A stretch of 64,000 nucleotides of DNA from Saprospiraceae bacterium (GCA_016716335.1 JADJWN010000002.1:123262-187261), one strand, 5' to 3'. Numbered from the stretch's first letter, positions 3,030 through 46,344 are shown. Program-made: numbers and translations. The notes: a model not told the origin generated them from the letters alone.

Positions 3030-4577
3030 TTAATGATTTATTACTATTTTCCTGATATCAATATTTTCAAAATTTATATCAACAATTTTGATAAAGTATA
3101 TACCTGATTTTATTTTATTTATCAGAATAGTAGTTTCATTTTCAGACGTTAAAATTTCTTTACCTTCAATATTGAATAGATAGAATCTAAAATTCTGTGA
3201 CGGGCTAATATCAATTTGGATTATTTTATCAGCCGGATTCGGAAAAATATTGATTCTCCTTCTTTCCATTTCAAGTGTTGATGTAATCAAATCTACCCCA
3301 TCACAATCTTCATCAATATCATTATCTGGAATTTCTACAGCATTGGGATTTATGGCGGGATCTGAGTCGTCACAATCATCAATGGCAAGAAATCCGTCCT
3401 GATCCAGATCGTCATCAGGAGTCAAAGGATTACAATCATCATCCAGTCCATTGTAAGGAATTTCAGCTGCATTGGGATTAATACCGGGATCTGAGTCGTC
3501 ACAATCATCAACGGCAAGAAATCCGTCCTGATCCAGATCGTCATCAGGAGTCAGAGGATTACAATCATCATCTAGTCCATTGTAAGGAATTTCCTTATGA
3601 TTTGGATGAATTTCGGGATTGTCATCATTACAATCCAGCTCAAAGCATGGCAAAATCATAATTTCTGCAAAATTTCCGGTGCATTGATGACTTACATAAA
3701 TTGCATCGAACATGCTGATGTTGTTATAATGAAAAATGAAGTTTTCTCCGTCATAACTGATGGAATCTTGCGGTATAATCCTGCTGAAACAATCCGGAGA
3801 AGAACTTAATATGAAACTTTTTGACCCTATTGGATTAAACACTTTTAAAGTATCGCAACTTCTGACTTTAAAAAACTTTGTATTTCCAGGTTGATTATTA
3901 TAACCCAAATTTATTTATGCTGTCCGGGGAATATAATTGCCAAAGCCATCATTGTCATTGTCTATGCCGTATTCAAACTGGCAATTGCAATATGAAGTAT
4001 TTTCAAAATTAATACTAATCTTTCTATTGTCAGGTAATAAAGTACACCCATGCAAAAGACCTCCATCAGGAAATCTGGTTTTGAATAATCCCAATCTAAG
4101 GTCTCCTACTCCTTCTATCCATTGTATGGTATCATATTCATCCCTGTTTAGTTTATAACTGAGTACCAGTTTCCAGACTGAATCTCCTACTAAATTTAAA
4201 ATCCTTTCTTTTTTAATAACCTTTAGTGAATCTGTGTCTTTATATTGTTTGTTGACAAATCTTTGACCCTCATTAAGAGTAAAATCATATTCCAAACTTT
4301 CAACAAAACCTGGAACCTGAAAATCATAGCCATAATTGTAAATTTTTCCGTTTTCACTTCTGTAATGGAGAAAACCGTTGGTAACATATTTTTGAGCACC
4401 TATTAAAGTATCTCTGCCAAAAGTCACGGTTGAAATTTCAGTCAGTAGCTGAACTCCCGTCCAGGAATAAAAAGTGTAAGTTTGTTTCCAACCTACAAAC
4501 GGGAAATCATAATACTGAGCAAATGCTTTATTGGAAATAACTGTTAAAATGATAGAAATATAACAAAGGCTTCTCAT
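3030..4577 (-). pseudogene. T9SS-secreted protein with Cys/Asp-rich putative metal-binding repeats, split by one in-frame TAA
   Basis: ORFs 3915..4577 (signal peptide) and 3030..3908 (T9SS C-terminal sorting domain, no signal peptide) are in the same frame. They are separated only by a TAA at 3915-3917. Confidence 0.6.
3357..3596. repeat. 129-bp tandem duplication inside the coding sequence (43-aa repeat IPYNGLDDDCNPLTPDDDLDQDGFL..DDCDDSDP.INPNA)
   Basis: Two near-identical copies start at 3357 and 3486. Confidence 0.85.
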
Positions 4578-25853: not shown

Positions 25854-26453
25854 ATGACAAACTCAAAATGCATGAAATCAAACCATTGGACCGTCCTGCT
25901 TTGTCTTGTGATATTGATGGCTGTTTTTTCAGAGGCCGGGGCACAGAGTACGAGGAAGCGCACTAACAAAAGAACAGAGAAAAAGGAGGTAAAAAAGAAA
26001 GAAACTGAAAATGAAGTGAATTTTTTCAGGGATCAGATGATATATGAAATCCGGTTGGGCAATCTGGGTTTTTTCAACGGATTTTCCATTTCTACCAAGC
26101 TGAATGCAGGCTATCGCATCAGTGACCACTTTGCTGCAGGTATAGGTGGTAAGTTTTATTACGATCAGTTTATTCAGAGAGGAGCTCCGGATATTTCCTA
26201 TTTTGACCGCGGGATTTTTGGATGGGCCCGTGGGAAAGTATCACAGGAAATTTACATACAGGCCGAATATGGCAACATGTATTATGACAGATGGGAGACT
26301 TCTGTCAGGACTCCATTAATTGGTGCCGGATATATGAGCGGCTTTGGCAGGTGGAAATTCGGCCTTGAGCTCATGTATATCATCAATGACACGGCACGTG
26401 ACCTTCAGGGCAGCGTGGTGGAGTATTGGGTAGGCGCCTCCTACAACTTTTAA
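25854..26453 (+). CDS. hypothetical secreted protein, possibly a small beta-barrel
   Basis: It has a signal peptide and alternating aromatic/Gly-rich strands ending in ..ASYNF. Confidence 0.5.
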   Translation: MTNSKCMKSNHWTVLLCLVILMAVFSEAGAQSTRKRTNKRTEKKEVKKKETENEVNFFRDQMIYEIRLGNLGFFNGFSISTKLNAGYRISDHFAAGIGGKFYYDQFIQRGAPDISYFDRGIFGWARGKVSQEIYIQAEYGNMYYDRWETSVRTPLIGAGYMSGFGRWKFGLELMYIINDTARDLQGSVVEYWVGASYNF

Positions 26454-26500
26454 AACCCGAAATCATCCTCCACTTCCTGAGGCTGAAATCCGGAAATTCT

Positions 26501-26566
26501 TTATAACCGGCGTTTGCCTGGATAAGTCGCAGTATATCACTAGGGTAGGTTTCAAAAAAACAGTTC
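26501..26566. repeat. left arm of the first attC-like site (ATAAC-CGGCG-TTTGCC)
   Basis: ATAAC is at 26503-26507 and CGTTTGCCTGG at 26511-26521. The layout matches the arm CCGCTAAC-AGGCG-TTTGGC of the site at 46211-46333 read on the other strand. Confidence 0.45.
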
Positions 26567-26702
26567 ATAAATTTGTAAAAGGATAAGAGCAAAACATCCT
26601 GCGAGAGGAATGCCAAGGAAAAATCCTGAGCATTCTTTTCAAAAGGAAGGATTGAGAGTATTTCTGTTTGCCTTGCAGGAGATTACATAGGAACGGCTGT
26701 TA
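26567..26702 (+). repeat. R module copy 0 (orphan), ending in the GTTATGC core
   Basis: About 85% identical to 37849-37984. It starts with ATAAATTTGT and ends GGAACGGCTGTTA. Confidence 0.85.
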
Positions 26703-26852
26703 TGCACTTGGCTTTATTGTCGTCTGTGTCTTGCGTTTCTTAAAGTATTCTAAAATTTCTTCTTTTGTCATCTTAGATAACTTCTCGCTCAATTTGTCTC
26801 TCTGTTGACGCATAAATTTTACAGCGTCAAATGTTTTCTCATTCGTCTTCAT
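26700..26852 (-). CDS. 50-aa hypothetical protein overlapping the PIN gene stop (possible TA partner)
   Basis: It reads MKTNEKTFDAVKFMRQQRDKLSEKLSKMTKEEILEYFKKRKTQTTIKPSA. It is below the ORF-track size cut-off and overlaps the PIN ORF by 14 nt. Confidence 0.5.
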   Translation of the reverse strand: MKTNEKTFDAVKFMRQQRDKLSEKLSKMTKEEILEYFKKRKTQTTIKPSA

Positions 26853-27303
26853 ATTTTTCAAATTCTCTTGGTGATCGTATTTCTAATTGCTTGTAACCTT
26901 TTTTAATATTGATTGAATTGTAACCCCTTATTCTTTCAATGTTTACTATGTGTTTGAAGTTCCAACTTATTAAAAAGTCTGCACGGTTTATTGTCGCTAA
27001 GGCTATGTGTAAGCAGTCTGCATAACTTGTATACCCCACAACTTTTTCGGTAATGTATTCGGTTGCTAATTCAATTGCTTCATCTGTTATTTCAATAAAC
27101 TCTGTCAGGTCGGCTCTAAGGCTTTTAACAAGTTCTTTTACATTTTCAGGTGCGTTTTCAAGTTCGTCCTGTGTAACTGTCTAGTAGAGAATAATGAATT
27201 CTCCTTTTTTGATTCTGTCAATCAGAGGAATAGTGTGTTCTCTGAACTCATCGTCAAAATGTCCCCCGAAAACAGATGTGTCTATGTATAATCTTTGTTT
27301 CAA
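26839..27303 (-). pseudogene. PIN-domain (VapC-like) toxin gene with an in-frame TAG
   Basis: A TTG start reads KQRLYIDTSVFGG...KKGEFIILY*TVTQDELENAP...LISWNFKHIV. The stop lies at 27181-27183. Confidence 0.7.
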
Positions 27304-27397
27304 TTTCTTTGTTGTCTTATTGTAATCAAAAATACGATTTTTGATTGTTCAATCGGTTGGTTTTATGTCTGATTGTTGTCTTTATAGACATGGGCAT

Positions 27398-27612
27398 AGC
27401 GTCAGACCTTGAAAAAACTCCCCAGCCTGTTCAAAATTATCTTTACAAAGATAGGTTTAAAAACATAATCTTTTCATATATTTACAAAAATTATATATGT
27501 TGATTTTGAGAGGAGAAGACAGGCATCAGATGCAGTTTTACAGTATTAGGGAAGGTATCTTGGAGGGCAATACATTGCTTTTTACAGAAGCATTTGTAGC
27601 TTGAATTCAGGC
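27398..27612 (+). mobile_element. truncated IS1182-like left end (terminal IR, leader and about 27 degenerate transposase codons), unit U1
   Basis: It aligns with 34668-34880 of the intact copy. The distal third is diverged but still homologous. Confidence 0.8.
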
Positions 27613-27750
27613 ATAAATTTGTTGAAGGATAATTTCAAAACATCCTGCGAAAGGAATGCCGGGGAAAAATCCTGAGCAATCTTTTCAAAAGAAAGGATTG
27701 AGATTATTTCCGTTTGCTTGGTAGGGGATTAGATAGGACCGGCTGATATA
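27613..27750 (+). repeat. R module copy 1 (orphan)
   Basis: This is the most diverged copy and ends GGACCGGCTGATA. Confidence 0.8.
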
Positions 27751-27760
27751 AGCCGTTTTT

Positions 27761-28369
27761 CTATTTATCATTTTTGTCTATTAGTTCAAAAATCAGTTCT
27801 GTTAGCGTCTTTAGGTCACTTTCAATTGTTCCTTTCATATACAGTTCGTAAACATTTTCGTTGTCTGGTGGGTTGAGATTTAGTGTCAAGCCTTTTTCTA
27901 ATGCCAACAGTCTTAAAAATTCCCTTTGTGTCCGTCCGTTTCCTTCTCTGAAAGGGTGTAAATAATTGACGTTATCTAAAATTTCCGCTAGTTTCTCGGC
28001 AAGAAGTTTTTTATTTTCTTTCGGAATTATCTTGAAGTCGGCAATTAATTGGTCAATGTATCTGAAAGCATTGTCAAAGAGCGAAGTAGGGAAAAACTGT
28101 TTGCCTTCTTTGCAAATTTCAACTGTCCGCTTTTTGCCTGCCCAAACGTAAATATCCTGAAATAAATATCTGTGAATTTCAAAAAGGCTGTCAATGCCCT
28201 TTATTTTTATAGGTTTTTCGTAAAGTTCTTGAAGTCGTTTTGTTACTGCACCACTCTCAACAAAGAGCAAGACATCAGGGTCGGTAATGCCTTGTAAGTT
28301 CCTTAAAAGTCCTGTCTTAGGGTCAATGTAGGTAAAGTCAGGGTCAATGTATTTATAGGAATTAGACAT
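27761..28369 (-). CDS. Fic/Doc-family toxin (class I FicT-like)
   Basis: The Fic motif is HPFREGNGRTQREF. The likely start is MSNSYKYIDP at 28369, overlapping the antitoxin stop (ATGTCTAA). Confidence 0.8.
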   Translation of the reverse strand: MSNSYKYIDPDFTYIDPKTGLLRNLQGITDPDVLLFVESGAVTKRLQELYEKPIKIKGIDSLFEIHRYLFQDIYVWAGKKRTVEICKEGKQFFPTSLFDNAFRYIDQLIADFKIIPKENKKLLAEKLAEILDNVNYLHPFREGNGRTQREFLRLLALEKGLTLNLNPPDNENVYELYMKGTIESDLKTLTELIFELIDKNDK

Positions 28370-28478
28370 AGGCTTTTTGTTTGGCAAGTGCCACAAGTTC
28401 TGATAGTGATATTTTTCCAGTCACATAGTCTCTTATGATTTCAATACCTTTTGGTGTCGGTTTAAATCCTTCAAACAT
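28362..28478 (-). CDS. VbhA/FicA-like antitoxin (38 aa from the ATG; up to 52 aa if the TTG at 28520 is used)
   Basis: It reads ..ANALGSNMFEGFKPTPKGIEIIRDYVTGKISLSELVALAKQKAYV and contains the inhibitory (S/T)xxxE(G/N) motif as SNMFEG. It is too short for the ORF track. Confidence 0.6.
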   Translation of the reverse strand: MFEGFKPTPKGIEIIRDYVTGKISLSELVALAKQKAYV

Positions 28479-28663
28479 ATTACTCCCCAAGGCATTTGCA
28501 GTGCTTTCAAGCGTTTTCAAGTCTGAAAACTTAACCCCATTATTGTTAGATTGCTTCTGTCTATTTCTATTTTGTTGAACATATTTTTAACTCTTAATTC
28601 TTTCCAAATTTATAAAATATCCATGTCAATTCGTTTGATTGTTGTCGTTTTAAAATGGCATAT

Positions 28664-28878
28664 AACGTCAGACTGTGAAAAAACTCCCCAGCCTGTTCAA
28701 AATTATCTTTACAAAGATAGGTTTAAAAACATAATCTTTTCATATATTTACAAAAATTATATATGTTGATATTGCGAGGACAGGACAGGCATCAGATGCA
28801 GTTTTAAAGTATTGGGGAAGGTATCTTGGAGGGCAATCCAGTGTTTTTTACAGAAGCATTTGTAACTTGAATTCAGAC
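28664..28878 (+). mobile_element. truncated IS1182-like left end, unit U2
   Basis: It shares its structure and breakpoint with U1 and U3. Confidence 0.8.
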
Positions 28879-29012
28879 ATAAATTTGTACAAAGAAAATT
28901 TCAAAACATCTTGCGAAAGGAATGCCGGGGAAAAACCCTGACATCTTTTTCAAAAGAAAAGATTGAGATTATTTCCGTTTGCCTGGCAGGAGATTACATA
29001 GGAACCGATGTT
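28879..29012 (+). repeat. R module copy 2 (orphan), followed by the GTTGGCGG core (29010-29017)
   Basis: About 95% identical to copy 3, with a small deletion in the first hairpin. Confidence 0.85.
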
Positions 29013-29028
29013 GGCGGTAGTGTTACTT

Positions 29029-30150
29029 TCAGAAGTCGGCAAGTTCGTAGTTTGTGCTTCGTCCGCCTTGTTGCTCTTGGCGTAATATTCCCTTTTCAAT
29101 TAAATCCTTAATGTCACGCAATGCAGTGTCGGTTGAACATTTAGCAATCTTTGCCCACTTTGATGATTTCAGTTTTCCATCAAATCCGTCAAAAAGTTTG
29201 TTTAACACTAATCTTTGTCGTTCATTAAACTCAGTGTTTTCGTGAATTTTCCAAAACTCAGTTTTTCGTAATATTTGCTGCAGATTAGTCTCTGTTGCCA
29301 ATAATGAGTTTCTAAGGCAATGTAAAAACCAGTTTAACCAATCTGTAATGTCGCCACTGCTGTGTTGAACCTTTTGCAAAATCTCATAATACTGTTTCCG
29401 TTCAATTAAAATTTGGCTTGACATACTATAATATCTTTCAGTTGTCTTGTCTGCACGGGCAAGCATTAAATCTGAAATTGCTCTTGCAATTCTTCCGTTT
29501 CCATCGTCAAATGGGTGTATGATAATAAACCAGAAATGAGCAATTGCAGATTTTAGAACCGGGTCAATAGGGGAGTTGGCATTAAACCATTTTAAAAACC
29601 TGTCCATTTCTTCTTTTACTCTGTTTGCAGGAACCGCTTCATAGTGAATTTTTTCTTTCCCCATTGCTCCTGAAACTATCTGCATCTCACCTGTTCGATA
29701 GCGTCCGACCTCTATCTTGTGCATTCCGCTGTGGCCTGTCGGGAATAGTGCCGAGTGCCAGCCAAACAGTCGTTTATTTGTCAAAGGTTTCTGATAGTTT
29801 TGAGTTGCATCAAGCATCATTTCAACAACCCCTTCAACGTTTCTATTTGTTGGAACAAGTCCGGCTATGTTAATACCAAGTCTTCTTGCAATTGATGAAC
29901 GAACTTGGTCATAGTCGAGTTTTTCTCCTTCAATTTCAGATGATTTGATTACGTCAAGCGTTAAAGTTGTAAGTGTAGCTTCTTCTTTTGTTGCAAAACC
30001 GAGTGTGTTCATCTGTCCGATAATCTTACCTTGCAAATTTCGGACTTCGCCAAATATGGCATTGATGGCGGTTTCCCGCCAAGTGAAGTCTGTCCAGTTT
30101 TTGTATTCGTAAATGTATTTAGCCACTTTTTCACACAGTTGTTGCGGCAA
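29029..30150 (-). CDS. Fic-family protein with an N-terminal Fic/DOC N domain and a C-terminal winged helix
   Basis: 373 aa. The Fic motif is HPFDDGNGRIARAISD. Confidence 0.85.
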   Translation of the reverse strand: MPQQLCEKVAKYIYEYKNWTDFTWRETAINAIFGEVRNLQGKIIGQMNTLGFATKEEATLTTLTLDVIKSSEIEGEKLDYDQVRSSIARRLGINIAGLVPTNRNVEGVVEMMLDATQNYQKPLTNKRLFGWHSALFPTGHSGMHKIEVGRYRTGEMQIVSGAMGKEKIHYEAVPANRVKEEMDRFLKWFNANSPIDPVLKSAIAHFWFIIIHPFDDGNGRIARAISDLMLARADKTTERYYSMSSQILIERKQYYEILQKVQHSSGDITDWLNWFLHCLRNSLLATETNLQQILRKTEFWKIHENTEFNERQRLVLNKLFDGFDGKLKSSKWAKIAKCSTDTALRDIKDLIEKGILRQEQQGGRSTNYELADF

Positions 30151-30275
30151 ATATAAGCATTATTCTCCGCAAAAATGCGGTGAATGTTAAAATTATTCTC
30201 CGCAAGTCAAACCAATTTTAAGTCAGTTTTTCGAGTCGCCTGTTTAACACCAAGTGCTGGGAAAACATTACCGCT

Positions 30276-30490
30276 AACGTCAGACTGTGAAAAAACTGCC
30301 CCGCCTGTCCAAAATTATCCTTACAAGGATAGGTCTTAAAATATAATCTTTTCATATATTTACAAAAATTATATATGTTGATTTTGAGAGGAGAAGACTG
30401 GCATCAGATGCAGTTTTAAAGTATTGGGGAAGGTATCTTGGAGGGCAATCCAGTGTTTTTTACAGAAGCATTTGTAACTTGAATTCAGAC
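30276..30490 (+). mobile_element. truncated IS1182-like left end, unit U3 (preceded by the CCGCTAAC core at 30271-30278)
   Basis: The IR is AACGTCAGACTGTGAAAAAACT. The degenerate reading QMQF*SIGEGILEGNPVFFTEAFVT compares with QMQFYTLEDRIAPDNPVRFVDAFVD in the intact copy. Confidence 0.85.
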
Positions 30491-30499
30491 ATAAATTTG
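30471..30499 (+). promoter_or_regulatory. candidate Bacteroidota sigma-A promoter (TTTG-N17-TAAATTTG) reading into the R module
   Basis: The -33-like TTTG (30471-30474) lies in the IS1182-like fragment. The -7-like TAnnTTTG (30492-30499) is the first conserved block of R. The same arrangement occurs in U1 and U2. Confidence 0.4.
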
Positions 30500-30626
30500 T
30501 ACAAAGAAAATTTCAAAACATCTTGCGAAAGGAATGCCGGGGAAAAACCCTGAGCATTCTTTTCAAAAGAAAAGATTGAGATTATTTCCGTTTGCCTGGC
30601 AGGAGATTACATAGGAACGGCTGTTA
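30491..30626 (+). repeat. R module copy 3 (orphan), followed by the GTTATGCGG core (30623-30631)
   Basis: Near-identical to 37849-37984. Confidence 0.9.
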
Positions 30627-30650
30627 TGCGGTCGGCTTTAATTTCTTCTT

Positions 30651-43624: not shown

Positions 43625-44434
43625 CTAATCTTTGCTTTCTTGAAGAATTAAATTTTGAAAATATGCCTTTGGATTTAAGCCAGTAAATTCCTTAAAATGT
43701 CGGTTAAGGTGAGCTTGGTCGTAGTAGCCTACGTCAAGGGCAATGTCTATTAGCTTGCTTTCCGATTTATTCACAATAAGTGAAGCATTGGCAATGAACC
43801 GTTCAAATCTCTTAATTTTTAAATAGGTTTTTGCCGAAAAACCTGTCAATTCTTTGAAGTTTCTTTCAAACTGTCGTTGAGACAAAAAGGAATTGGCGAC
43901 TAATTCAGGAACTGAATTAATATGGGTTTGGTCTATTGACAAAATGAGTTTTTCAACGGATAAGTATTTGAGATGTAACTCTTTTAATCTGTTATTGAAA
44001 AAGTCTGTTGCAATGATTGTCTTTTGTTCAAAACTTCGGGCTTCATAAATCTTCTCTGATAGCTCATTACCTTGATACCCCAATATGCTATTTATATCAA
44101 CTGTTTGCTGCGATAACTCATTAGCTGGTATTCTAAGTAAAGTTAGTGCAGCAAGGGGCGAAAAAGTTATACCAAATATTGAGCTTCTGGGTACAGCAGC
44201 AATATAATGTTTAAAGGAAGTTGATTGACCATAAAAACTGCTCCTTGAAACAGGTTCTTCCTTGCCGTCTTGTTTAAGTGAATAAATACCCTGGTCAAAA
44301 AACAGCAGTTCGATTTTACTTGTCGCCACTGAATGATAGACATTTGGTCGTTGAGGTAAGTCCAAGTCGTCACCCCACCAAAATGTGTCAATATATTTTT
44401 TTAAGTGGTCCGGTGGTCTGATTGTTTGGTACAT
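43625..44434 (-). CDS. AraC-family transcriptional regulator
   Basis: 269 aa. The C-terminal HTH reads ..IDIALDVGYYDQAHLNRHFKEFTGLNP. Confidence 0.8.
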   Translation of the reverse strand: MYQTIRPPDHLKKYIDTFWWGDDLDLPQRPNVYHSVATSKIELLFFDQGIYSLKQDGKEEPVSRSSFYGQSTSFKHYIAAVPRSSIFGITFSPLAALTLLRIPANELSQQTVDINSILGYQGNELSEKIYEARSFEQKTIIATDFFNNRLKELHLKYLSVEKLILSIDQTHINSVPELVANSFLSQRQFERNFKELTGFSAKTYLKIKRFERFIANASLIVNKSESKLIDIALDVGYYDQAHLNRHFKEFTGLNPKAYFQNLILQESKD

Positions 44435-44488
44435 TCAAATTTTTAGCTTGTCGAGTTTCTTGTTGTGTCGTCTTTTACAATGCCCGCT

Positions 44489-46210
44489 AACGTCAGACTG
44501 TGAAAAAACTGCCCCGCCTGTCCAAAATTATCCTTACAAAGATAGGTTTAAAAATATAATCATTTCATATATTTACAAAAAATTATATATGTTGATATTG
44601 CGAGGACAAGACAGGTATCAGATGCAGTTTTATACTCTTGAAGACAGGATTGCTCCGGACAATCCTGTAAGATTTGTGGATGCCTTCGTAGATAAAATAG
44701 ATCCGGATAAGCTGGGATTTGCAGTACGTACTGTCAAGACAGAAGGTCGCCCGGCGTATGAGTCAAAATTATTTCTGAAAATATATTTGTACGGCTATCT
44801 GAATGGTATCAGATCAAGCCGGAAGCTGGAGCGAGAGTGCGGACGCAATACCGAGCTGCAATGGCTTACGGGCAATCTGCAGCCCAATTATCACAGCATT
44901 GCGGATTTTCGTAAGGATAATCCGAAAGCACTCAAAGGGTTGTTTAAACTCTTTTGTATTGTTTCTAAAAAAAGAAGCAGAGTTAGTAGCAGGAGAAGTA
45001 GTAGCCATAGATGGTGCCAAAGTCAGAGCGAGCAATAGTAAAAAAGAATAATTACAGTCAGAAGAAAATAGAACGGCATTTTGGCGTATATAGAAGAAAA
45101 GATGAACGAGTATCTGGAACAGTTAGAAGCCAATGATAAGCAGGAAGAGACAGAGAAAATCAATCAAATACAAGAGAAAATAGAAAGACTGAAAGTTAGC
45201 AAGATAAGGTATGAATATCTGGAAGGAGCATTGCAGCAAAGCGGCGACACCCAGCTATCTACAACGGATGCAGATGCCGGGCTCTGCTGGTACAAGGGCA
45301 GGTAGTGGAAGTAAGCTACAATGTACAGGCTGCAGTGGATGAAAAGCATAAATTGGTAATAGGTACCCAAACCATCAATCGCAACGACAGGAATGCACTG
45401 AGTGATATAGCGACAGAGAGCAAAGAAAATATGGGCTCCGAACAAATCACCGTATTGGCTGACAAAGGGTATCACAACGGGGAGAGATCAGTAAGTGTAC
45501 AGAAGCCGGCATTACGACGATAGTAGCCCCGTCAGAGATAGTCAACAGTAATGATAAAGGCACCACACCGGAGTATCTGTGGATAAGTTTAAGTATGATG
45601 AAAGCACCGATAGCTACACCTGTCCGCAAGGAGAGAAACTGGAGACCAAAGGCACGTGGCACAAAAAGACCAGAGACCGGGACAGCTACCAATACAAAAA
45701 ATACCGTACACCTGCCTGTAAGACCTGTCCGGTAAAGCATTTGTGTACGGGCAGGGCCAAAGGAGGCAGAGAAATTGAAAGATCAGAATATGCCCCAGCC
45801 GTACAAGCCAACAATCAACGGTATAAAGAAAATACGGCACTGTACAGAAAACGACAAGAGATCAACGAGCACATATTTGGAACGATAAAACGAGGGTGGG
45901 GTTATGGACACACCAACCTGCGGGGACTGGAAAAGTGAATGGGGAATATGCCCTGATAATGACGGTATATAATATGAAGCGGAGCATGCATATTCTGGGT
46001 ATGCCCGAAATTCCTGAAAACTCAAAACTGGAAACCGGACTACGAAAAGTAGTCAAATTTCCCCTAAAAATCATTTTAGAGCATATGATGTATTACAGAT
46101 GGTCACGATAAATATTTTGGTAGCATAAATAGCCCTAAAACGCATCTATCAGGAAGCCATATAGAGGGCCATAGAAAGCAAAAAATTGAGTTTTTTCACA
46201 GCCTGACGTT
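44489..46210 (+). mobile_element. IS1182-family insertion sequence, decayed copy (transposase in at least six fragments)
   Basis: Near-identical to 34668-36390. At least eight single-base indels separate them, most in homopolymers. It is preceded by the CCGCTAAC core (44484-44491). Confidence 0.85.
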
Positions 46211-46333
46211 TTGGCGCTTGGCGCAGTGGCGGATTTCGGAGCACAAAATTGTCAATACACCACAAATGTTGATGCGAGGCGGAATGTTCAATTAACCACG
46301 TCACCCGCCATTGAGCCAAACGCCTGTTAGCGG
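46211..46333. repeat. body and right arm of an attC-like site split by the IS1182 copy
   Basis: With the IS removed, the site reads CCGCTAAC-G-TTTTGGC...TGGCGG ... CCGCCA..GCCAAA-CGCCT-GTTAGCGG. That gives paired outer (8 bp) and inner boxes over about 135 bp. Confidence 0.6.
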
Positions 46334-46344
46334 TTCGGCTTTCT

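Follow-up and report, generated by a model that had tools for sequence, protein, structure and literature searches.

Remnants of an attC-directed IS1111-type insertion sequence in an integrase-less cassette array of a Saprospiraceae bacterium

Introduction

Insertion sequences (ISs) of the IS1111 family are bounded by sub-terminal inverted repeats of ~11-13 bp, with extensions of 6-7 bp on the left and 3 bp on the right, and carry a long non-coding region after the transposase gene (PMC11187229). The published seekRNAs of the family map just downstream of the stop codon (PMC11187229), and bridge RNAs of IS1111 elements are located in their non-coding right end (PMC11208160). ISPa21, ISPst6 and ISKpn4 belong to the IS1111-attC group (Tetu & Holmes 2008 and Post & Hall 2009, as cited in PMC11187229), and a cluster of attC sites lacking an integron integrase is termed a CALIN (PMC12444791, citing Cury et al.). 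Here we analyze a 64,000-nucleotide stretch of DNA from a Saprospiraceae bacterium (GCA_016716335.1, JADJWN010000002.1:123262-187261), referred to below as the window, in which one IS1111-type element and four orphan copies of its right-end module, which we call R, lie in a cassette array. We conclude that the orphans are ordinary IS remnants in a heavily colonized, integrase-less array. The window comes from a metagenome-assembled genome (MAG) that was probably built from long reads, and single-base indels in it are unreliable.

As far as the IS1111-attC group is described in PMC11187229, the window element shares with it a DEDD transposase, sub-terminal repeats with short asymmetric extensions, a long downstream non-coding region encoding a probable seek/bridge RNA with top- and bottom-strand target matches, and an oriented insertion at a fixed position near one attC end that leaves no target duplication. 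Against the same description, the differences are a Bacteroidota host (Saprospiraceae, with relatives in Chitinophagales and Pedobacter), a transposase that is <32% identical to plasmid-borne proteins, among the matches listed and with the enterobacterial members of the group included, an extra ~115-nt module of box and hairpin that this sub-clade carries between guide RNA and right repeat, and the fact that four of the five right ends here are solo. Functionally the locus corresponds to the IS1111-attC situation of Pseudomonas, Xanthomonas and enterobacterial integrons; by sequence it represents a separate lineage.

Results

R is the right end of an IS1111-type element

The complete element of the window was delimited by comparing the flanks of nine relatives, and its parts are as follows:

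36500-37973, plus strand: full IS1111-type element, 1474 bp
From 36500: left end, with a GCATCC extension and sub-terminal repeat ATGTAAATCTC
36570 to ~37650, plus strand: DEDD transposase gene with two homopolymer frameshifts
37653-37796, plus strand: probable seek/bridge RNA of the element, sole copy in the window
37849-37973, plus strand: IS-linked R, with TAAATTTG box, hairpin GAAAGGAATGC...GCATTCTTTTC, U tract, A/T-rich spacer and right sub-terminal repeat
Up to 37973: right end, with sub-terminal repeat GGAGATTACAT and AGG

The transposase gene encodes an IS110-type N-terminal domain (DEDD_Tnp_IS110, PF01548, E 1.5e-07) and a C-terminal Transposase_20 domain (PF02371, E 3.7e-23) in two frames, and is followed by 311 nt of non-coding DNA; the extensions outside the sub-terminal repeats measure 6 nt on the left and 3 nt on the right. 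R is the last ~125 nt of this IS1111-type (DEDD) insertion sequence, because the DEDD domains lie directly upstream of it and because relatives have a homologous R after the gene. Such an R, ending in TTACATAGG, is found in L003, L009 and L001, whose transposases are 72-78% identical to that of the window, and in L008. The relatives compared, which come from metagenomes, a Chitinophagales MAG and a Pedobacter genome, have transposases 53-78% identical to it. A scan of the genome collection with the repaired transposase returned one locus, L001, which is cut at the start of R, and a gapped R pattern run against metagenomes returned four matches, of which the sole true relative is the IS-linked copy of L008, with no orphan copies elsewhere. 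Among the matches listed, the best tblastn identity of the transposase to 72,556 plasmid records was 31%; several thousand enterobacterial matches were all <60%, and the best of those listed were all near 30%. On the plasmid tblastn, the transposase falls outside the described proteobacterial IS1111-attC group.

A first-pass annotation of the window had taken the recombinase to be broken. Two frameshifts are indeed present (36915-36925 and 37510-37515), each a one-base homopolymer difference (AA against AAA, GGGG against GGG) from L002, a short-read contig that is 99.7% identical and encodes an intact 361-aa transposase (P0001). Long-read assembly error or very recent mutation is the likely source of both frameshifts, and the gene may be intact in nature, judging from this near-identical contig.

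R itself was placed by alignment and by profile search at the five positions that the first-pass annotation had given. An nhmmer profile found exactly these copies (E 5e-42 to 6e-39; everything else had E >0.2), and a gapped pattern gave five window matches against none in 100 shuffles. All copies are in direct orientation. Three of the orphans, R1-R3, are not free-standing, a point that the first-pass annotation omitted, and form the right part of a ~335-nt composite, the U unit, described below; only R0 stands on its own:

26567-26691, plus strand: R0, solo IS1111-type right end at the left edge of the array, found by alignment and profile; flank AACGGCT at 26692-26698, then GTTA at 26699-26702; no attached IS1182 fragment
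27613-27737, plus strand: R1, in U1; flank ACCGGCT, then GATA; two changes in the sub-terminal repeat and one in the hairpin stem
28879-29002, plus strand: R2, in U2; flank AACCGAT, then GTTG; hairpin weakened by a substitution and a gap of 1 nt
30491-30615, plus strand: R3, in U3; flank AACGGCT, then GTTA; 96.8% identity to the IS-linked copy

Over 125 nt, the orphans are 88.0, 89.6, 94.4 and 96.8% identical to the IS-linked R, a narrower range than the 85-99% first reported. The claim that each copy stands at an identical offset from a GTTA core is borne out: the distance from ...CATAGG to the GTTA-type box is 7 nt in all five, an offset that is the same because of site-specific insertion by the IS1111-type family. 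The companion claim, that every copy ends in GGAACGGCT before GTTA, applies to three of five (R0, R3 and the IS-linked copy), as R1 reads GGACCGGCT followed by GATA and R2 reads GGAACCGAT followed by GTTG. The IS terminus is ...CATAGG, and the seven nucleotides before the box, formerly counted as R, are attC flank outside the element and vary from site to site. The TAAATTTG box shows no variation across the five copies. The right sub-terminal repeat, also said to be kept by all, is exact in four (GGAGATTACATAGG) and changed at two positions in R1 (GGGGATTAGATAGG). As had been noted, the orphans have neither an adjacent recombinase gene nor a left end: there is no DEDD gene beside them, the sole GCATCCATGTAAATCTCTCC left end of the element in the window is that at 36500, and we found no cryptic IS1111 left end and no second IS1182 right repeat near them. 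A candidate decayed R fragment at 26506-26553 was not backed by the profile search.

The layout of R is a TAnnTTTG box 5' of a hairpin, with the A/T-rich spacer and sub-terminal repeat on the 3' side. The box at the left edge recurs in L001, L003, L008 and L009, and across the window copies and L003, L008 and L009, four independent sequences on which the structural statements about R rest, one hairpin is the sole structure kept, followed by a U tract (UUUUC) and AAAAGAAA, while the stem sequence is wholly different between relatives. Predicted hairpin energies are -20.0 (R0), -16.3 (R1), -13.8 (R2), -23.6 (R3) and -17.2 kcal/mol (IS-linked). More distant relatives (L011, L012 and L017) have the guide segment and terminal repeat, and the R hairpin module is absent from them. 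Thus R is a clade-specific right-end module of the IS1111-type element. Our best guess is that it would end the transposase/guide transcript, with the hairpin and U tract serving as terminator, and carry a putative right-end binding site.

The cassettes beside the orphans encode Fic/Doc-family (27761-28396 and 29029-30150) and PIN-like proteins on the opposite strand, and this setting, together with the conserved box, hairpin and U tract and a left boundary of R that always coincides with the box, could be read as retention of R as a regulatory cassette, either an outward promoter or a terminator/insulator between convergently arranged toxin-type cassettes. We find this highly improbable given that R1 and R2 carry stem-weakening changes, that the role of R inside the element explains the same features, and that five copies are too few for testing selection. 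A sigma-70 promoter scan showed no enrichment, with a model that is unsuited to Bacteroidota. There was no Rfam match for R, the guide region or the module on the right of the V units (below), either in a gathering-threshold run over the whole window or in a permissive run over 26400-38100. The cassette next to R0 (26703-27390) resembles a PIN-type toxin gene with an in-frame stop (~27183).

The guide RNA probably lies outside R

To locate guide sequences, the non-coding region of each element was searched for stretches of 7 nt or more that exactly match the flanks or tips of that element. The self-match of the right end aside, essentially all matches fell at positions 55-141 of the ~300-nt non-coding region, and they changed with the flank. 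In L017, AACACGGGTT is the reverse complement of the right flank AACCCGTGTT; in L011 the guide reads ACATCGGT against flank ACCGATGT, and in the window element CAGCCGG against CGGCTG. A second guide segment equals the left flank plus the first IS bases (GCCAAGCA in L009, TTAGAAGC in L003, CGCCAAGC in L015 and CGCAAAGCA in L017), and a third, reading GGATGC, AGATGC or AGTTGC, is complementary to the left tips GCATCC, GCATCT and GCAACT, respectively. An RNAalifold consensus of seven elements has 23 pairs, of which 14 show compensatory changes, and places the first two segments on opposite strands of an internal loop. In the predicted fold, a closing stem (CAGACTGC/GCAGCTG) encloses this loop with its target-matching strands, and a second stem-loop lies between strands matching the left and right tips of the element.

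The segment at 37653-37796 resembles the IS621 bridge RNA and the ISEc11 and ISKpn4 seekRNAs, with a stem-enclosed internal loop whose two strands respectively complement the right target flank and equal the left flank and IS tip, and with a second stem-loop flanked by donor-end matches; the order of top-strand followed by bottom-strand match and the site just past the stop codon are those of the published IS1111 seekRNAs (PMC11187229) and accord as well with the bridge RNAs of IS1111 elements (PMC11208160). The orphan R copies differ from these RNAs in lacking the segment. It lies directly after the transposase gene, R begins 53 nt past its end, and a profile of the guide region matched the window once and matched no orphan. 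R has no match of at least 7 nt to a flank or end except the right end itself, no internal loop and no covarying target or donor segment. The guide RNA is therefore probably 37653-37796 and not R. R appears dispensable for guidance because L011, L012 and L017 keep the guide region and have no R-like hairpin module. The string CCGTTTGC in R is complementary to the restored target; we attribute this to chance, since there is no covariation in L003 or L009.

These results bear directly on the proposal of the first-pass annotation that the orphans are retained, trans-usable guide RNAs, that is, guide-RNA genes transcribed from the TAnnTTTG box and loading a recombinase in trans, possibly with altered specificity. 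It would fit the invariance of the box in the five window copies and its presence in L001, L003, L008 and L009, the TTTG found 17 nt upstream of the box in the U units, the hairpin kept in R0 and R3, and the occurrence of an intact recombinase of 100% identity in a sample of the same type. We nevertheless regard it as extremely unlikely, since every covarying segment that matches target or donor sits in the region that the orphans have lost, R offers neither loop nor flank match in its place, the three distant relatives have the guide region with no R-like module, and the published seekRNAs occupy the position just past the stop codon (PMC11187229).

Three orphans share one junction with an IS1182-family element

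A second insertion sequence occupies the same array. It was assigned to the IS1182 family by NF033551 (359 bits) and is present in the window as two full copies and five truncated ones (beginning at 27402, 28669, 30280, 31948 and 33701):

34672-36386, plus strand: IS1182-family copy a; 487-aa DDE transposase at 34768-36231; flanked by CG duplication; at the other end of the IS1111-type element's attC
44493-46206, plus strand: IS1182-family copy b; same position in another attC, whose remainder at 46209-46333 is intact up to GTTAGCGG
27402-27737, plus strand: U1; IS1182 left end from 27402 to ~27546 (with 90% identity to copies a and b), a diverged stretch of ~70 nt, then R1
28669-29002, plus strand: U2; architecture and internal junction as in U1
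30280-30615, plus strand: U3; architecture and junction as in U1; arrangement identical in contigs of three other metagenome samples
31948-32313, plus strand: V1; nt 1-221 of the IS1182 left end and, after 12-14 nt, an apparently complete attC; no R
33701-34067, plus strand: V2; structure and internal junction of V1, between different cassettes

The IS1182 left end is found at every attC-type site of the array, always at the same position (AA[CG]TT with CG duplication), which on the cassette strand lies between G and TT of the core box, and the Pedobacter locus L017 (~1430-1880) carries a ~450-bp two-ended IS1182 derivative at the same attC position. It thus appears to be a second, DDE-type, attC-specific IS, and at 34672-37973 a single site holds both ISs, one on each side of the attC core. 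The transposase frame of copy b (44385-46111) is split into several open reading frames (ORFs) in DNA that is 97% identical to copy a, which reflects either real decay or homopolymer errors.

In the U units, the left ~215 nt are the IS1182 left end, of which the first 146 nt have 90-95% identity to IS1182 and the last ~70 nt are a diverged homologue of the IS1182 transposase N-terminus (~52% identical to IS1182), and the junction with R falls at the identical nucleotide in U1, U2 and U3. Cassettes and short flanks on either side differ among the three. The right part of the V units (~165 nt) resembles a whole attC, TTAACATT...AATGTTAGC; we had considered it as a group II intron remnant and rejected this, as it had no Intron_gpII or domain V match and resembles attC. 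Over their first 146 nt, the seven IS1182 left ends are 89-97% identical but mosaic: among 91 pairs of informative sites, the four-gamete test fails for 46.

Since the three U copies share one internal layout, occupy equivalent positions and have site-specific flanks, U could also be a mobile non-autonomous element, a hybrid miniature inverted-repeat transposable element (MITE), that transposed into three attC sites. A MITE has two matched ends served by one transposase, and U has an IS1182-type left end and an IS1111-type right end, one for a DDE and one for a DEDD enzyme; it lacks both the right inverted repeat of IS1182 and the left end of IS1111, so that neither enzyme finds a matched pair. 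These mismatched ends make transposition unlikely, the mosaic polymorphism suits recombination better, and we give the hybrid MITE very little credence. A pseudo-IS1182 right repeat, GTGTTTTTTACAG, seen in U2 and U3, was set aside as chance because its terminal bases mismatch and U1 does not have it.

Both elements occupy attC-type sites

The sites themselves were identified from sequence, fold and context rather than with a dedicated attC model. In seven of the nine relatives compared, the element is flanked as ...GC(C/A)AA-IS-AAC(N4-5)GTTA, and in the window, L009, L010, L011, L012, L015 and L017 the arrangement is ...AA-IS-AAC(N4-5)GTTA(G/T), with neighboring genes on the opposite strand. 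The IS1111-type element thus inserts in a single orientation, 7 nt from one attC core box; on the cassette-coding strand, R adjoins the inverse-core end of the site, next to the stop codon. The surroundings form an imperfect palindrome closed by ...CCGCTAAC and GTTAGCGG..., and the site shared by the two ISs has kept its center:

36389-36499, no strand assigned: attC-like core between the two ISs, with imperfect inverted arms GCAGCTTTGCGTAGTGGGGG / CCCCATTACGCAAAGC; missing from U1-U3

This core is 73% identical to the attC of L017. When IS1182 copy b was removed in silico (joining 44478-44492 to 46209-46342), the restored site folded into a long bulged hairpin with CCGCTAAC paired with GTTAGCGG (-29.3 kcal/mol, z = -2.0), and its GTTAGCG differs at one position from GTTRRRY of the consensus boxes RYYYAAC / GTTRRRY. 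L017 carries the same attC family with a tyrosine recombinase beside the array, which scores 181 bits against the integron-integrase model TIGR02249, under its curated cut-off of 265.

Two relatives deserve a separate remark. L008 (9000-10560) has an R-type right end in a non-attC context, with ~70 nt of identical repeat-rich sequence (GAGACTTAGAGACTGAGAG...) on both sides. L009 and L010 agree in the transposase and in 16-22 nt of left flank, and their right flanks diverge immediately after ...CATAGG (AACGGCTGTTAGCTG against AACCCGTGTTAGCCA), which points either to a pair of similar attC sites or to an exchange involving the right junction.

The array spans 26.6-47.3 kb with all cassettes on the minus strand; every site in it is interrupted, and the attC core is lost at five of eight junctions. 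The first-pass description of an array that lacks an integrase is correct for the window, where tblastn found no tyrosine recombinase, and there is no integrase within 17 kb on either side of the array. On these sequence features it is best described as a cluster of attC-type sites with no integrase. As CALINs are characterized in PMC12444791, it shares with them promoter-less same-strand cassettes, imperfect-palindrome sites with ...TAAC / GTTA... boxes and the missing integrase; it differs in that every site is interrupted and five of eight have no attC core, which leaves most unusable even by an integrase supplied in trans.

Between 37981 and 44490 lies a 6.5-kb block of about eleven close-packed minus-strand genes with no internal attC-like site, encoding acetyltransferases, a glyoxalase, a hydrolase, an NmrA-like protein and an AraC-type regulator; it is flanked by attC-type boxes, like a single giant cassette. 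Elsewhere in the window (3300-3557), a 129-nt unit is duplicated in tandem (87% identity) in or beside a minus-strand ORF.

Origin of the orphan copies

Taken together, we consider it probable that the orphans are solo right ends, scars of an attC-homing IS, that most of them, those of the U type, stem from one copied deletion scar, and that they carry no guide RNA. In the order of events that we propose, the IS1111-type element would have inserted repeatedly, in one orientation, into attC-like sites, and the IS1182-family element would have lodged at the opposite end of the same attC. For three of the orphans, a single ancestral deletion from about nt 215 of IS1182 to the first base of R would then have eliminated the guide RNA and the two transposase genes along with the attC core. 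The resulting ~335-nt scar would have been copied, by homologous recombination or gene conversion, into neighboring attC sites that already held both ISs, and the orphans would thereafter mark dead attC sites devoid of target-recognition information.

The identical junction in U1-U3 implies that it arose once, and the differing cassettes and flanks imply that the unit was copied between sites rather than duplicated with its neighbors. The mosaic left ends are probably the signature of repeated gene conversion, which would be the most likely route by which the scar spread. Decay is visible in the stem-weakening changes of R1 and R2 and in the altered sub-terminal repeat of R1. Two of the explanations offered by the first-pass annotation are each half right in this light. 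That the copies are decay products of repeated site-specific insertions agrees with insertion into successive attC sites, with flanks that differ and with guides of relatives that match the flank; that one rearranged unit was spread by recombination agrees with the identical junction in three copies and the mosaic polymorphisms. The two together fit the data. Compared with solo IS ends or deletion scars undergoing concerted evolution, the orphans likewise have one terminus exactly at the insertion point, an identical internal breakpoint and mosaic variants; what sets them apart is that the scar joins two unrelated attC-specific IS families and does so at three successive cassette junctions.

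Several observations weigh against this account. In the IS-linked, U and R0 contexts alike, R homology starts at one and the same base, immediately 5' of ATAAATTTG, an agreement not expected from random deletions. The IS1182 fragment ends at ~nt 215-221 in both U and V, for which a single chance deletion is insufficient, and we found no microhomology or pseudo-site that would explain the coincident breakpoints. Decay is also uneven, with the hairpins of R0 and R3 intact or stronger than that of the IS-linked copy. Gene conversion is argued from mosaic patterns in seven short copies, and in a probable long-read MAG single-base indels, including that of R2, may be assembly errors.

We also weighed whether the orphans could still serve as usable right junctions, such that the resident left junction and an orphan would recombine to excise cassettes as a circle with a rebuilt attC end, or to produce other rearrangements. 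R0 and R3 keep the exact sub-terminal repeat and AGG, with a flank (AACGGCTGTTA) equal to that of the IS-linked R, and the R1 flank ACCGGCTG complements guide segment CAGCCGGT perfectly over 8 nt; every copy has the same direct orientation, the resident recombinase is probably intact, and excision in this family requires correct flanks and the RNA (PMC11187229). The products expected are a right-end/left-end junction, ...TTACATAGG joined to GCATCCATGTAAAT, and a hybrid attC, ...CGCAAA joined to AACGGCTGTTATGC, and the window contains neither. The strain comparison called for by the first-pass annotation, made through exact cassette proteins, covered contigs of other samples and found the same arrangement in L018-L020 and contigs ending at R in L021-L027, with no variant junctions seen. 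Such activity would moreover be a by-product of leftover ends, with no sign of maintenance for it, and we regard it as unlikely. An RNA-guided recombinase that acts on the orphan sites as targets, as was first envisaged, is not supported, since each orphan has lost the left half of its target. Slightly less likely than the use of orphan right junctions as such is the wider reading that they support integrase-independent, RNA-guided cassette excision or shuffling, in which case the coincident breakpoints could be traces of a directed process.

Discussion

Had the orphans been spare guides that steer a DEDD recombinase to attC sites, they would have amounted to a novel route for integron cassette movement. 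The evidence favors a known principle, in which attC-specific ISs colonize and degrade a cassette array, and our preferred account of the orphans as copied right-end scars belongs to it. Two breakpoint coincidences are still odd, namely the left edge of R and the IS1182 truncation shared by U and V. The locus also carries a warning, in that a conserved right-end module beside the target in IS1111-type elements need not be the guide RNA.

What is gained is a Bacteroidota lineage of IS1111-type elements with attC specificity, whose probable guide RNA has been mapped by covariation, together with an IS1182-family element found at the opposite end of the same attC sites. The array as a whole provides a clear case of two site-specific ISs erasing attC cores and freezing cassettes in place.

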